Shown: one piece after another, positions 1-38,740 of the stretch | Layout: every line of letters starts with the position of its first letter | How positions within the stretch are numbered: position 1 is the first letter of the stretch | Program-made: the position numbers and the translations under genes | From: a virus | Lineage: Duplodnaviria; Heunggongvirae; Uroviricota; Caudoviricetes | Strand: one strand, 5' to 3' | DNA: 40,429 nucleotides | IMG/VR virus record: IMGVR_UViG_2529293138_000011 | Coordinates: 1 to 40,429 of that record | Notes under the pieces: model-generated | Database searches by the model: none | What the model was told of the DNA's origin: nothing | Seen by the model: only the letters and a program-made list of their open reading frames with translations

Positions 1-1158
1 ATGCTCACCGTTAAGCAGATTGAAGCAGCAAAGCCGAAAGAAAAACCATACCGCCTTCTCGATGGTAATGGCCTGTACCTTTATGTCCCTGTATCCGGGA
101 AAAAGGTATGGCAGCTTCGCTACAAGATTGACGGTAAGGAGAAAATCCTGACCGTAGGAAAATATCCGCTTATGACTTTGCAGGAGGCAAGAGATAAAGC
201 ATGGACCGCGAGGAAAGACATCTCGGTTGGCATCGATCCGGTAAAAGCGAAAAAGGCTTCGTCTAACAACAATTCATTTAGTGCGATTTACAAGGAATGG
301 TACGAGCACAAGAAGCAAGTCTGGTCAGTAGGCTATGCAACTGAACTTGCCAAAATGTTTGATGACGACATTTTACCCATCATCGGCGGTCTTGAGATTC
401 AGGATATTGAGCCGATGCAACTGCTGGAAGTAATCCGCAGATTTGAAGATCGCGGTGCAATGGAGCGAGCCAACAAAGCACGCAGAAGATGCGGAGAGGT
501 TTTCCGTTACGCTATTGTCACCGGAAGGGCTAAATATAACCCGGCACCTGACCTTGCAGACGCCATGAAAGGATACCGCAAGAAGAACTTCCCGTTTCTT
601 CCTGCAGACCAGATCCCGGCATTCAATAAAGCACTGGCAACATTTTCAGGAAGCATCGTATCGCTCATTGCGACCAAAGTTTTACGCTACACAGCCCTAA
701 GAACGAAAGAGCTTCGTTCCATGCTATGGAAGAACGTCGATTTTGAAAACAGGATTATCACCATCGACGCCAGTGTGATGAAGGGACGCAAAATTCATGT
801 GGTTCCGATGTCAGACCAGGCGGTTGAACTTCTCACTACGCTAAGCTCCATCACTAAACCAGTATCAGAGTTTGTTTTTGCCGGGCGCAACGATAAGAAG
901 AAGCCAATCTGCGAGAACGCGGTATTGCTTGTGATCAAACAAATCGGCTATGAGGGTCTGGAAAGCGGTCACGGATTCAGGCATGAATTCAGCACAATTA
1001 TGAACGAGCACGAATGGCCTGCTGACGCTATTGAAGTGCAACTGGCACATGCCAACGGCGGATCTGTGCGTGGAATTTACAACCATGCTCAGTATCTCGA
1101 TAAGCGCAGAGAAATGATGCAGTGGTGGGCGGACTGGCTTGATGAAAAGGTTGAGTGA
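1..1158 (+). CDS. intS: Tyrosine recombinase, P4-family prophage integrase (CPS-53 IntS-like)
   Basis: 385-aa ORF beginning MLTVKQIEAAKPKEKPYRLLDGNGLYLYV, which I recall as E. coli IntS. It has the N-terminal arm-binding region and C-terminal catalytic region layout. ORF starts at window position 1, so the upstream att/tRNA is not visible. Confidence 0.85.
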   Translation: MLTVKQIEAAKPKEKPYRLLDGNGLYLYVPVSGKKVWQLRYKIDGKEKILTVGKYPLMTLQEARDKAWTARKDISVGIDPVKAKKASSNNNSFSAIYKEWYEHKKQVWSVGYATELAKMFDDDILPIIGGLEIQDIEPMQLLEVIRRFEDRGAMERANKARRRCGEVFRYAIVTGRAKYNPAPDLADAMKGYRKKNFPFLPADQIPAFNKALATFSGSIVSLIATKVLRYTALRTKELRSMLWKNVDFENRIITIDASVMKGRKIHVVPMSDQAVELLTTLSSITKPVSEFVFAGRNDKKKPICENAVLLVIKQIGYEGLESGHGFRHEFSTIMNEHEWPADAIEVQLAHANGGSVRGIYNHAQYLDKRREMMQWWADWLDEKVE

Positions 1159-1239
1159 ACGACATTATGAACAACAGGAGAACACACAAAACCTCGCAAA
1201 AATTACAAAGATTTGTGTGTTAGTACTTATCATTGCGAT

Positions 1240-1986
1240 TTAAAGAATAATTCTTTCAACCTTCCAAGTTGCAGATCTACTTCCTGAAATTCCAACTCCA
1301 TTTGAATCTTTGAGAAGAATTCTAAATGATGTTTCTGTTACCAAATCATACGTTGCATTTATTGCTGCGCCATCTCCTATCGATATTGAGATAAAATCAG
1401 GCACAACTCCAAGTCCGTGAGTTATTATTTGTCCATTTGAATAAACCCCAGTTCCTATTTTAGTCGTTGCATACCCGGCATTGTTTGCAAGGACAACATT
1501 AACCGAATTTGCTCCTAATTTAGCAATCTTCCTATCAGATGAAATCTCTGTAGATTGTATTGCATTATTTGAAATAACTGCATCTTTTATAGCCCTGAAA
1601 TCTCCAGGTGTTCCTGATACAGCATTAACAAGTATTGCATACTGCATACTTCTATCACTTCTTTTATTGCCGAAAGCATTACCGCAAATTGTTGTCCCGG
1701 TAAATCCAGATGCTCCCGTGTTATCAAGAAGAATTCCGCACCTATATGTATTTGATGTATCAGAAGGCAAACCTATACCTCTTATGGAATTATTGGATAC
1801 TATATTATTATCTGGCTTGACATTTGCATTATTGCAGTAAATGCGAATTCCAACATCACAAAATGCATCTAATACATTATCAGATATAACATTACCCGCT
1901 CCCCACACATCAATACCCATAAACGAATCAGCACCATCTCCAAAAAATTTATTTTGAGTAACTATTGTTCCGCTACCCCTAATCAA
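1240..1986 (-). CDS. Tailspike protein, C-terminal segment (beta-helix receptor-binding part); the reading frame stays open upstream to about 2067
   Basis: 248-aa ORF rich in G/N/S/T/I repeats typical of a right-handed beta-helix. Track start is a TTG. Translating the same frame upstream gives [33 protein letters not shown]..., overlapping the end of the upstream tailspike ORF in another frame. AT-rich. Confidence 0.7.
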   Translation of the reverse strand: MIRGSGTIVTQNKFFGDGADSFMGIDVWGAGNVISDNVLDAFCDVGIRIYCNNANVKPDNNIVSNNSIRGIGLPSDTSNTYRCGILLDNTGASGFTGTTICGNAFGNKRSDRSMQYAILVNAVSGTPGDFRAIKDAVISNNAIQSTEISSDRKIAKLGANSVNVVLANNAGYATTKIGTGVYSNGQIITHGLGVVPDFISISIGDGAAINATYDLVTETSFRILLKDSNGVGISGSRSATWKVERIIL

Positions 1987-2045
1987 TATAGCAGGCCTTG
2001 GAATGCTTGAAGTCTTTTTGCTATCATTGTAGCCATGATTATCGT

Positions 2046-3185
2046 TTATATGAGATTCCCCCCCGCACTATCTATGCAGCAATTACACGAATCTATTATA
2101 TTTTTATTTATCCTTACATAGACAGAATCGTGTTTTATACCTGTAATAAAATTTGATATGGAATTTGATACAAAACTAGTTGCCTTACATGGCAATGAAA
2201 CGCCATGTATAGCGTCCTTAGACGCTCCTATGGCAACAAAATGTATCCCTGTAACAATTGCTGGGTTCTCATTAGATGATGTGTCACCTATGGTAATAGC
2301 AAAAGAATTCTCATCTTCAGGACCATCAATTGTTAATATCGTTTGTGGCGTATATCCTTGAGATATTTGCGATCCATTTCCTGAACCAAACCCTCTCATA
2401 CTTACAAAAGATGGGATTCTTAGTTTTTCTGTTACTCTACAGTTGCCACCCCAAAAAAATTCCTCTTTAACATGGGCAGCGGCCAGCATGATTGGAATTG
2501 TATCATCTTTAACTCCATCAAGCGTCGCTCCATAATTTCTAAGGTCATTGGTTTCATACCCATTTAAATAACCAATACATCTCCATCCTGTTGAGGTATA
2601 TCTGGCAAATTTATCATCTGGGGGAACAGTAAAAGGAGGAACTGTCATTTCTCCTCCAGTTATTTCATTTTCATATACCCAAAACAACCCATCATAATCT
2701 TTGATTGCGCATCGGTTGTCACGAATGATATTTTGCTTGTCATAGTTCCCACAATATGAAAAACCAGTTGCTAATTTCTGTAAATTTGTTCCTGATGCTG
2801 AGTTTATTAATGATGCGCCATTTTCGCTAGTTAATACATTATTTAGAGGGTCAGGATCATACTTCAGCACATTAGGAAAATAGAACTGCTGCGCACCGTA
2901 CGCATCATAAACAGCCATAGAATGGCCTTGCACGGTAACGAATTTGGCAATCTGTCCGTTATATACCGGATATCCAGCAGCGTTAATGATGATTGGTTGC
3001 GAAACAGGAACATGAGAGCCATCTTCGTTCTCCACATAAACCTGAATCTGGTTTTCAGGATTTACCGGATCAGTGTCAATTTTTCCGATATAAATTTTTC
3101 CATTGGCTACTGCTTTAAAAGAACGCGCCATAGTGAAGAGTTGCGATGGCATACTCACTACAACATTGGCTGTAATGTCTGTCAT
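2046..3185 (-). CDS. Tailspike protein, N-terminal segment with P22 gp9-type head-binding domain
   Basis: First ~110 aa ([112 protein letters not shown]) match the P22 tailspike head-binding domain as I recall it. The rest is a divergent AT-rich domain. Stop at 2046 lies 12 nt 3' of a C7/G7 run. Confidence 0.85.
2058..2064 (-). repeat. Homopolymeric tract (7 C on + strand, 7 G on coding strand) at the tailspike frame break
   Basis: Sequence tgagattccc ccccgcacta. The two tailspike ORFs overlap here in different frames and both read GG across the tract. Confidence 0.8.
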
Positions 3186-3243
3186 TTAATTTGCTCCAGA
3201 TACAAGGAATCTCCGCAGCGGGGCTACGGTGAATTTTGGGCAT

Positions 3244-3267
3244 AAAAAAACCCAGCCGAAGCTGGGT
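3244..3267 (-). terminator. Rho-independent terminator between ant and tailspike
   Basis: On the minus strand: ACCCAGCTTCGGCTGGGT followed by TTTTTTTATG (GC stem, TTCG loop, U-tract). Confidence 0.7.
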
Positions 3268-3285
3268 AGTTGCGTTGGTTATCTG

Positions 3286-37969: not shown

Positions 37970-37983
37970 ATTGGAGACAAGAA

Positions 37984-38328
37984 ATGTCAGATTTGGCTAT
38001 GAAGGTTTTGAAATGGCAATCGACTGGCGATGTTGGCATCAGTAGCGCAACTCTTGCCTCAATCGCATGTGGACTGAAAAAGAATATCTATGGTCATAGC
38101 TTCGGCGCTCCACATGACGCAGCCGATTTCCGACGATGCGTTGCACTTGTTGAGCAGATTCCAGAAATCAGAGATTCATTCGACAAGGTTGCAAAGCGCG
38201 TTCCGACATTCAAAGGCATCCTCAACGAATGGGATTCCCTCGTTGCTCTGTTGAAGTCTGAAATGAAGATACACGGAAACAAAGCACCAGAGACTTACAG
38301 AAGAATCAGCGAGCTACGCAAGGACTAA
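37984..38328 (+). CDS. Hypothetical protein
   Basis: 114-aa ORF, globular composition, followed by a terminator. Confidence 0.5.
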   Translation: MSDLAMKVLKWQSTGDVGISSATLASIACGLKKNIYGHSFGAPHDAADFRRCVALVEQIPEIRDSFDKVAKRVPTFKGILNEWDSLVALLKSEMKIHGNKAPETYRRISELRKD

Positions 38329-38385
38329 CCCGCCTCACACTCGATGAGGCATTTTCATTTATCAAGATATCCAGACCTACCATCG

Positions 38386-38407
38386 CCGCATCAATGCGGT
38401 TTTTTTA
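38386..38407 (+). terminator. Rho-independent terminator
   Basis: CCGCATcaATGCGG followed by TTTTTTTAT. Confidence 0.65.
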
Positions 38408-38451
38408 TTACCTGATTTGCAGGTTCGATTCCCTATTCGGAGATAGCACTC

Positions 38452-38652
38452 ATGCAACACGAACTACAGCCTGATTCCCTGGTTGATTTGAAATTCATCA
38501 TGGCTGATACTGGCTTTGGTAAAACCTTCATCTACGACCGGATTAAGTCCGGCGACCTGCCAAAAGCCAAAGTTATCCACGGGCGAGCAAGATGGTTATA
38601 TCGTGACCATTGTGAATTCAAAAATAAGCTCTTAAGCCGCGCCAATGGGTAA
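38452..38652 (+). CDS. AlpA-family DNA-binding protein, putative excisionase/recombination directionality factor
   Basis: 66 aa. LVDLKFIMADTGFGKTFIYDRIKSGDLPKAKVIHGRARWLYRDHCEF fits the AlpA/Xis helix-turn-helix pattern. About 70 bp upstream of the att core. Confidence 0.7.
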   Translation: MQHELQPDSLVDLKFIMADTGFGKTFIYDRIKSGDLPKAKVIHGRARWLYRDHCEFKNKLLSRANG

Positions 38653-38725
38653 AATAGCGGGTAAAATATTTCTCACACCTAAAAAACACCATTCCAATCA
38701 ATCCCCTGCCGCTTCAAGTAGATGT

Positions 38726-38740
38726 CTGCAGGGGACACCA
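38726..38740 (+). other. attR core: partial copy of a tRNA 3' end (CTGCAGGGGACACCA), consistent with argW tRNA-Arg
   Basis: CTGCAGGGGACACCA carries a tRNA acceptor 3' strand and CCA but is not preceded by a full tRNA. This is the expected signature of the att direct repeat at the distal prophage end. Identity to argW is from memory. Confidence 0.55.

Follow-up and report, generated by a model that had tools for sequence, protein, structure and literature searches.

Described relatives of the element

The recombination module of KplE1 (the CPS-53 prophage of Escherichia coli K-12), HK620, Sf6 and CUS-3 has been studied experimentally: the left attachment site, attL, overlaps the intS promoter, and transcription of int is uncoupled from that of the excision factor (PMC2951348, PMC3509656). 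In KplE1, int is driven by its own promoter in attL, which is negatively autoregulated (PMC2951348). The layout xis-attP-int is already annotated in the HK620 and Sf6 records. The interval between gene 16 and the tailspike gene has been described as a highly variable 'ant moron' (PMC2629481), and the epsilon34 paper reports that P22-like phages commonly have a Q about 99% identical to lambda Q. Here we analyze the IMG/VR record IMGVR_UViG_2529293138_000011, whose 40,429 nucleotides (nt) are hereafter called the window. It very probably contains one complete-length prophage of about 38.9 kilobases (kb), which belongs to the P22-like lambdoid group (Lederbergvirus, of the HK620/IME10/Louie type), is integrated in the transfer RNA (tRNA) gene for arginine, argW, and shows a new combination of modules.

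The closest described phage in regulation and integration is HK620 (NC_002730; Clark et al. 2001). It is like the element in int (98%), xis (100%), the attP core and the xis-attP-int order, in cI (100%), cro (98%), hkaS, the operators, the nut boxB and N residues 1-64, as well as in the ninH-rusA-roi block, the lambda-type Q, S and R and the P22-like gene order. However, HK620 has Sf6-type head genes (coat similarity undetectable, portal 32%), another tailspike receptor domain, an O-antigen polymerase-like moron by int, a P22 c1-like cII, a DnaB-type replication module and a Sak4/SSB recombination module; furthermore, it does not show a functional immI or an HNH gene in the pR' leader. IME10 (NC_019501) and Louie (PQ850616, BASEL collection) share the virion cluster from gp10 to TerS, the IntS-type int and the TorI-type xis. 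In addition, IME10 has the hybrid N (97%) and ninX, and Louie has the lambda-type cII (100%), Q and the Gp157/RecT block. Both differ in tailspike, gp16, gp20, immunity and replication, lack immI, and share 38-40% of the element at an identity of at least 90%.

KplE1 shows the same Int (99.7%) and TorI (100%), an attR arm with 94.6% identity, the argW core, and int at attL with torI at attR; nevertheless, only a remnant of 10 kb is left of it, which lacks genes for immunity, replication and the virion and has gtr-type O-antigen genes next to intS. P22 is similar in the order and type of its virion genes, immI (92% at nucleotide level), lambda-type Q (96%), Rz (90%) and the tailspike head-binding domain, but its head proteins are only 73-93% identical (78% at nucleotide level), it has an adjacent int/xis pair and a thrW site, its immC, N (gp24), replication, gp14 and gp20 are different, and it carries gtrABC and sieA. 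The likeness to lambda is found in Q, S, R, cII, NinB and NinE (96-100%), in the -35, Q-binding element (QBE) and -10 of pR', and in the 6S leader and tR'; the element lacks the virion, int/xis, immunity, O/P and red genes of lambda, Rz is not of the lambda type and the leader is interrupted by the HNH gene. Phage 21 (lambda imm21) resembles the element in N residues 37-99 (94%), the pL leader with boxA and the hexaloop boxB, and differs from it in the arginine-rich motif and the boxB sequences.

Gene order and coordinates

The gene order is collinear with the maps of P22, HK620 and Sf6 (Table 1). After int, a minus-strand block contains the tailspike, ejection, head, packaging, lysis, Q, nin, replication, cII and cro genes and ends at about 30513; a plus-strand block with cI, N, recombination and accessory genes and xis then extends to 38652. 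According to the map of open reading frames (ORFs) and tblastn against P22, HK620, Sf6, IME10 and Louie, the late operon shows the order 3-2-1-8-5-4-10-26-14-7-20-16, the variable 'ant moron' and the tailspike, on the minus strand from 19590 down to 1240. The early layout of P22-like phages (pL-N, cI, cro-cII-replication-nin-Q, lysis) is also present, as is a Lederbergvirus tailspike with a conserved N-terminal head-binding domain, in a gene that is frameshifted downstream. The length of about 38.9 kb is in line with this phage group (HK620, 38.3 kb; Sf6, 39.0 kb). The guanine plus cytosine (GC) content is about 38% at 1000-3000 and 43-52% in the rest of the window.

Table 1. Features of the argW prophage and its right host flank in the window (aa, amino acids; bp, base pairs).
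Feature	Coordinates	Strand	Remarks
int	1-1158	+	tyrosine integrase, IntS-type, P4-family; read inward from attL
tailspike gene	1240-3185	-	split: ORFs 2046-3185 (379 aa) and 1240-1986 (248 aa)
immI (ant/immI block)	3250-5778		92% nucleotide identity to P22 immI over 3217-5452
ejection genes and gene 14	5963-10342	-	16 (5963-7810), 20 (7807-9219), 7 (9232-9888), 14 (9863-10342)
head/neck/packaging cluster	10342-19590	-	needle gp26, gp10, gp4, coat gp5, scaffold gp8, portal gp1, TerL gp2, TerS gp3
DUF2560 gene	19670-19912	-	between lysis cassette and terS
T5orf172/MUG113-domain (GIY-YIG-like) gene	within 20240-20899	-	between Rz and terS; Pfam and PHROG
lysis cassette	20928-22145	-	S 21822-22145, R 21362-21838, Rz 20928-21365
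interrupted lambda-type late promoter region	22541-23451	-	compared with lambda 44500-44830
HNH-AP2 endonuclease gene	22731-23222	-	in 688-bp insert 22732-23418; Pfam HNH_3 and AP2, phrog_99
Q late antiterminator, lambda type	23494-24117	-	lambda Q: 100% protein, 97.0% nucleotide identity; P22 gp23: 96%
nin region	24114-26814	-	ninH, rusA, DUF1364, roi (KilAC), ninF, ninX, ninE, ninB
Toprim primase/DnaB-like helicase fusion	26891-28771	-	Pfam Toprim_2/DnaB_C
O-like initiator	28879-29739	-	Pfam Phage_rep_O
DUF2740 gene	29732-29878	-	HK620-type
cII, lambda-type	29911-30204	-	96/97 aa (99%), 98.0% nucleotide identity to lambda cII
HK620-type immunity region	30264-31977	mixed	cI 100%, Cro 98%, HkaS 97% to HK620
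nutR	boxA 30296-30305, boxB 30264-30279	-	
cro	30313-30513	-	
OR1-3	30538-30603		
cI	30614-31330	+	
hkaS-like membrane protein gene	31350-31718	+	122 aa, 97% to HK620 hkaS
OL1-2	31849-31890		
nutL	boxA 31938-31947, boxB 31962-31977	+	
N antiterminator, hybrid	32086-32385	+	
early-left accessory/recombination genes	32394-38328	+	including Gp157-like, DUF5405, DUF2737, eaG-like, HK022p30-like
phrog_2471 gene after N		+	32400-32628 absent from phage panel
RecT	33432-34334	+	
Ea22-like	35564-36301	+	
dATP/dGTP pyrophosphohydrolase-DUF551 fusion	36527-37606	+	359 aa
xis (recombination directionality factor)	38452-38652	+	read towards attR; 66-aa product; 74 bp upstream of attR core
attR core CTGCAGGGGACACCA	38726-38740	+	last 15 nt of argW; right prophage end
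sucrose-permease gene cscB	39182-40429	-	host flank 38741-40429; 98% nucleotide identity to E. coli JCKP02

The element is a mosaic of known modules

Both halves of the window (1-20000 and 20001-40429) were compared by megablast with 50,697 phage records and 5,426 complete E. coli genomes. Among the phage records, none covers at least 80% of either half; the best are Louie, with 61% of the left half at 95.7% identity, and HK140, with 52% of the right half at 95.8%. Likewise, no prophage in the 5,426 genomes reaches 80% of either half (best 77 and 65%). The window was also mapped by blastn on HK620, P22, lambda, Sf6, Louie, lambda imm21, CUS-3, HK140, 611R6, IME10, mEp043, three E. coli prophages and CPS-53 of K-12. 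The share of positions 1-38740 matched at an identity of at least 90% is 40.5% for IME10, 38% for Louie, 34% for 611R6, 32.5% for HK620, 28% for HK140, about 17.5% each for Sf6 and CUS-3, 12% for P22, 8.7% for lambda and 1.6% for imm21, and the union of the panel of 11 phages amounts to 30.0 of the 38.7 kb. That the element is a slightly diverged copy of a named phage (HK620, IME10, Louie, CUS-3 or P22) is hardly credible: although the proteins from gp10 to TerS are 98-100% identical to those of IME10 and Louie, and the immunity, int and xis 97-100% to HK620, even the best single phage leaves more than half of the element unmatched at this threshold.

A greedy tiling with the 15 references, at the same threshold of at least 90%, divides the element into 24 matched pieces and seven gaps (about 4.4 kb in total). 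For each reference, identity switches between 95-100% and undetectable at gene boundaries, and therefore the mosaic is not due to chance. These results confirm that the mosaic is real, with breakpoints at or near gene boundaries. An earlier note on this DNA had proposed a mosaic genome, and the observation that would speak against it, one known phage collinear at high identity, was sought in the phage records and the E. coli genomes and not found.

A mosaic could also result from an assembly in which contigs of several lambdoid prophages of one strain were joined via shared repeats. Assemblers can be misled by the near-identical segments that lambdoid prophages have in common, and the exact combination of modules was found nowhere else in the collections searched. 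The exact 69-nt junction between int and the tailspike had no hit among the GTDB representatives, one genome per species, a result of little weight since this set has a single E. coli genome. However, the genes form a complete P22-like map without redundancy, each module being present once, the length fits the phage group, the breakpoints coincide with gene boundaries, and many junctions are spanned by long alignments to independent genomes: HK620 at 29732-32277, E. coli JCKP02 at 26374-30049 and at 37909-40429, the latter into the host flank, and E. coli OkiPb01694 from int-distal DNA into the tailspike. We consider such an artefact very improbable.

The modules of the prophage are an IntS/TorI recombination module, a rare tailspike receptor domain, P22-type immI and virion genes, lambda-type S-R, Q-pR'-tR' and cII, an mEp043/ES18-type primase replication module, HK620 immunity (cI, cro, operators and nut boxB), a hybrid HK620/21 N, and RecT recombination. 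All of them circulate in the enterobacterial lambdoid gene pool. On the basis of established lambdoid-phage genetics, such a mosaic would arise when lambdoid phages and prophages that reside in or infect the same cell, and share short conserved boundary sequences, recombine repeatedly by homologous and illegitimate events.

The patchwork build and the split int/xis layout are real but ordinary for this phage group. The earlier note implied that they were unusual, and this did not hold, as every feature is annotated in the HK620, Sf6 and CUS-3 records and published (PMC2951348, PMC3509656, PMC2629481). Since all features are already described for HK620, Sf6, CUS-3, epsilon34 and P22, the element represents a new module combination of a well-known kind. 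On the whole, the earlier interpretation is partly supported: it was right for the most part, but had to be corrected for N/nut and for the morons. The prophage is one more combination among the well-documented mosaics of P22-like and lambdoid prophages found at argW, and matters little beyond annotation; it does illustrate fine-grained exchange, with a lone lambda cII in an HK620 immunity region and an intragenic hybrid N.

Boundaries and integration site

The left cut of the window is the start codon of int. ARAGORN found no tRNA in the window, and thus argW itself is located outside it; attL is also outside, about 180 bp to the left of base 1. Relatives show the tRNA-Arg gene argW directly to the left of the same int and cscB-cscK-cscA directly to the right of the same xis, which identifies the window as an argW-integrated prophage together with its right host flank. 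The HK620 record places an attP core of 16 nt between hkaC and int, and the attR core matches 15 of these; it also matches the 3' end of tRNA-Arg in another locus. Phage homology ends wholly at 38740, where the host cscB flank begins, so the right boundary is exact. The flanking sequence points to an E. coli-like host with csc sucrose genes. In this host the csc sucrose regulon lies beside argW, at the place where K-12 has dsdC.

Several points weigh against the reading as one complete-length prophage with a new combination of modules. Its left end, with attL and argW, lies outside the window, and completeness there is inferred from relatives. The reference panel and the collections searched are finite, and draft genomes or metagenomes may hold a closer relative. 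As the tailspike gene is frameshifted, the element as sequenced may not be a viable phage. Finally, the initial transcribed region of the lambda-type pR' is replaced at the HNH insertion, so that Q-dependent late transcription is not guaranteed.

Recombination module

The Int protein is identical to IntS of E. coli K-12 in 384 of 385 amino acids (99.7%) and shows 98-99% identity to the Int of HK620, Sf6, IME10 and Louie. According to Pfam, it contains the domains Arm-DNA-bind_3 (PF13356), Phage_int_M (PF22022) and Phage_integrase (PF00589). Over its full length (402 aligned columns) it is 35% identical to P4 Int (E=3e-78), and no significant similarity was found to P22 Int or to lambda Int, in agreement with its first description as an IntS-like integrase of the P4 family. 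The 66 amino acids of Xis are all identical to K-12 TorI, as well as to HK620 HkaC and Sf6 gp18, and the protein belongs to phrog_66 (excisionase).

When attP lies between xis and int, integration at argW leaves int at attL and xis at attR. The proposal that int and xis occupy opposite prophage ends with attP between them is borne out by the attR core, which corresponds to both the argW 3' end and the HK620 attP core, and by the end of phage homology directly after it. The protein identities of 99.7-100% suggest that the uncoupling of int and xis and the autoregulation of int described for KplE1 may also apply to this prophage, and excision would be carried out by IntS and TorI at the argW att sites.

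The stop codons of int and the tailspike gene are separated by only 81 bp (1159-1239). The O-antigen-modifying gene that occupies this place in HK620 (hkcF), Sf6 (oac), 611R6 (O-acetylase) and KplE1 (yfdGHI) is missing here.

A rare tailspike with a frameshift

A poly-G run of seven G (G7) at 2058-2064 contains a -1 frameshift, which divides the tailspike gene into two ORFs. Its homologue in E. coli OkiPb01694, at 20082-22028 of that locus, is found on a P22-like prophage with an Sf6-type capsid at bio/ybhB (ybhB/bioA). This homologue is intact (648 amino acids) and shows 99% nucleotide identity, with eight G (G8) for the G7 of the window as the only indel. G8 is present at this position in two independent E. 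coli genomes. Amino acids 1-112 correspond to the Pfam domain Head_binding (E=1e-65), and this N-terminal domain is conserved; among solved structures in PDB, only the head-binding domain was matched, by the N-terminal domains of Sf6 gp14 and P22 gp9, and the receptor domain has no sequence relative among them. The receptor-binding domain is rare and of low GC content (about 38%), being found in two of the 5,426 E. coli genomes and in none of the phage records. The same rare tailspike on prophages of different capsid and integration site clearly points to an exchange of the tailspike module.

The low-GC block by int (1240-2850) was considered as a candidate O-antigen-modification moron, such as those of HK620, Sf6, 611R6 and KplE1, and rejected, since it is the tailspike receptor domain.

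The frameshift represents either a homopolymer sequencing error or a real inactivating mutation, conceivably a phase-variable one. Single-base homopolymer miscalls are a common sequencing artefact. If the frameshift is real, the prophage could not make adsorbing particles, and the element would be a defective (cryptic) prophage whose induced particles lack functional tailspikes and whose mosaic is partly the product of decay. We regard this as possible but somewhat doubtful. The difference between G7 and the G8 of both independent genomes, which splits a gene for 648 amino acids into ORFs of 379 and 248, is what favors it; however, the frameshift is the sole lesion found, the remaining homologues of P22 essential genes are full length, no insertion sequence elements or deletions are present in the element, and homopolymer miscalls of this kind are common. 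Under the reading of a complete-length prophage, the presence of a rare receptor-binding tailspike that is frameshifted as sequenced still bears on whether induction gives infectious particles.

Virion genes, ejection genes and immI

The head and packaging cluster is collinear with that of P22, with 77-78% nucleotide identity and 61-93% identity between proteins: TerL 93%, gp10 92%, scaffold 85%, TerS 82%, portal 78%, gp26 76% and coat 73%. The similarity to Louie and IME10 is higher, and between gp10 and TerS (10835-19590) reaches 95-98% at nucleotide level and 98-100% at protein level; the needle gp26 shows only 64-66% identity to the needles of these two phages.

The ejection genes are more heterogeneous. 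In relation to P22, identity is 75% for gp16, 73% for gp7, 47% for gp20 over half its length and 22% for gp14; in relation to Louie, it is 97% for gp14 and 88% for gp7. A prophage of E. coli 23CRST032 matches the stretch 6008-8647 at 96.6% identity, and 8875-10387 has no match of at least 90% in the reference panel. With these differences, the ejection-protein stretch is a mosaic of its own inside an otherwise P22-type cluster. The structural, ejection and immI genes had been regarded as P22-like, which stands for the head and packaging genes, gp16, gp7 and immI, but not for gp14 and gp20.

Proteins encoded in immI are close to those of P22 (Arc 98%, Mnt 98%, Ant 86%), and an hkcC-like protein is 99% identical to that of HK620. 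The region shows the Pfam domains P22_AR_N and P22_AR_C and phrog_8100. It also contains face-to-face promoter-like sites similar to Pant and Pmnt at 4453-4486, as in P22, and terminator-like sites at 3250-3267 and 5045-5064.

Immunity, antitermination and cII

The five operator 17-mers annotated in HK620 (OR1-3 and OL1-2) are all unchanged in the window, and the immunity region shows 99-100% nucleotide identity to HK140 and 611R6. Both boxB copies are CCCGCCGAAATGCGGG, the same as in HK620, and fold with hexaloops. The boxB sites of phage 21 are CTCAACCTAACCGTTGAG and TCACCTCTAACCGGGTGA, and neither is found in the window; boxA, the pL leader and the hexaloop architecture are common to the window and phage 21.

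By tblastn, the full-length N protein shows 97% identity to its counterparts in CUS-3, IME10 and 611R6. The same method shows that it is a hybrid: amino acids 1-64 are 95% identical to HK620 N and amino acids 37-99 are 93.7% identical to lambda imm21 N, with an overlap at residues 37-64. Its arginine-rich motif, DNARNRRRARRQAQ, is identical to that of HK620 and differs from phage 21; in place of the phage 21 motif GTAKSRYKARRAELIAERR, the window has DNARNRRRARRQAQREQ, identical to HK620 and CUS-3. The C-terminal part, of the phage 21 type, corresponds in lambda N to the region that interacts with NusA and RNA polymerase.

A phage 21 specificity of N and nut was rejected on the basis of the HK620-type arginine-rich motif and boxB. 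Therefore, of the phage 21-like N and nut first proposed, the likeness in N residues 37-99 and in the boxA and leader was retained. Since cI, the operators, the arginine-rich motif and boxB are those of HK620, immunity and nut specificity are of the HK620 type, and should be annotated in this way and not as 21-type. Lysogeny would be maintained by the HK620-type cI at OL and OR, and the hybrid N would act at the HK620-type nut sites to antiterminate early transcription.

Between the HK620-type cro/nutR and the HK620-type DUF2740 gene, the lambda cII forms a single-gene cassette. In a sliding comparison, its breakpoints are near 30215 and 29880, between which identity to HK620 falls and identity to lambda rises. 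A pRE-type TTGCGTTTGTTTGC is retained at 30182-30195. The CII site TTGC-N6-TTGC occurs three times in the window, which is not above chance; two of the sites are where lambda has pRE and paQ, the latter inside Q at 23817-23830, and given this count the assignment of paQ is by position only. No such site is present near xis in the window, and a CII-dependent pI could not be confirmed.

The hkaS-like gene is located directly downstream of cI and has no PADLOC match. Its position, which is that of rexAB in lambda, suggests that it is probably expressed together with cI in the lysogen.

Lysis, Q and the interrupted late leader

The genes previously described as essentially lambda proved to be so, with protein identities of 100% for Q, 99% for S, 98% for R, 99% for cII, 99% for NinB and 96% for NinE. 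Rz has another origin (59% to lambda, 96% to Sf6 and 90% to P22), and the nucleotide identity of the lysis cassette is 97-98% to Sf6, CUS-3, HK140, IME10 and mEp043 and 92.5% to lambda.

Of the lambda Q/qut module, the lambda-type Q is present, together with the pR' -35, QBE and -10 at 23423-23451, a stretch which a promoter scan reads as TTGACT-17-TAAATT and which shows two substitutions in 29 nt in relation to lambda. The insert with the HNH-AP2 gene begins right after the -10/+1 region of pR' and precedes tR' (22541-22597), and the remainder of the 6S leader resumes at 22730. The two flanks of the insert are contiguous in lambda and in E. coli JCKP02. Where lambda reads TTTGAC, TCAACGATGG and GTTAAT in succession, the window reads TTTGAC and CAAAGAATGG, followed by the insert, and then ATGG and GTTAAT. 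Thus, at the edge of the insert the lambda pause-inducing TCAACGATGG is replaced by CAAAGAATGG, and the resulting AAGAAT is still similar to a -10 hexamer. This insert in the pR' leader was found in none of the 50,697 phage records, but in 16 of the 5,426 complete E. coli genomes.

The loading of Q depends on a promoter-proximal, sigma-dependent pause element (AACGAT in lambda), and the 6S RNA is the one phage transcript that lambda makes constitutively, lysogens included. An unlikely proposal is that the HNH cassette occupies a homing site that hijacks the Q/qut switch and, separately, that the G8/G7 tract of the tailspike gene is a slipped-strand on/off switch instead of an error. If the homing site were functional, the prophage would express the endonuclease and the control of the late genes would change. 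In a complete-length prophage, late transcription would proceed by the lambda-type Q at pR'.

Candidate morons, nin, replication and early-left genes

The proposal that module junctions coincide with morons was upheld in part. Inserts unique in relation to the panel are found at module boundaries: ant/immI, the T5orf172 gene, the HNH gene and the genes downstream of cI and N. However, the block 1240-2850 is the tailspike receptor domain, and promoter-like matches in the window are not enriched over shuffled sequences; the ant/immI block shows both promoter- and terminator-like sites. The stretches absent from the whole panel, which are located between conserved modules, include 5458-6007, a phrog_8100 gene where P22 has sieA, 20209-20723, the N-terminal part of the T5orf172 gene, and 22732-23408, the HNH-AP2 gene segment. 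A strong terminator-like hairpin at 20877-20897, just after Rz, precedes the T5orf172 gene. PADLOC found no known defence genes among ten accessory or moron candidates, and only a weak match of PDC-S57 to the T5orf172 domain (E=1e-5).

Each small block of the nin region comes from a different source: 24127-25805 is 95-96% identical to HK620 and HK140, and ninX (Pfam NinX) is 95% identical to IME10, next to the lambda-type NinE and NinB. The replication module (26891-29878) is 99% identical to mEp043 at nucleotide level and absent from P22, lambda, HK620 and Sf6. Among the early-left genes, 36307-37332, with a small ORF and the pyrophosphohydrolase-DUF551 fusion, is largely unmatched at nucleotide level in the panel. 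For the stretch 33039-35569, identity is 97.5% with the prophage of E. coli JCKP02, 93-94% with HK140 and 611R6, and 87-98% with Louie; the adjacent 35568-36306 is 96.6% identical to HK620.

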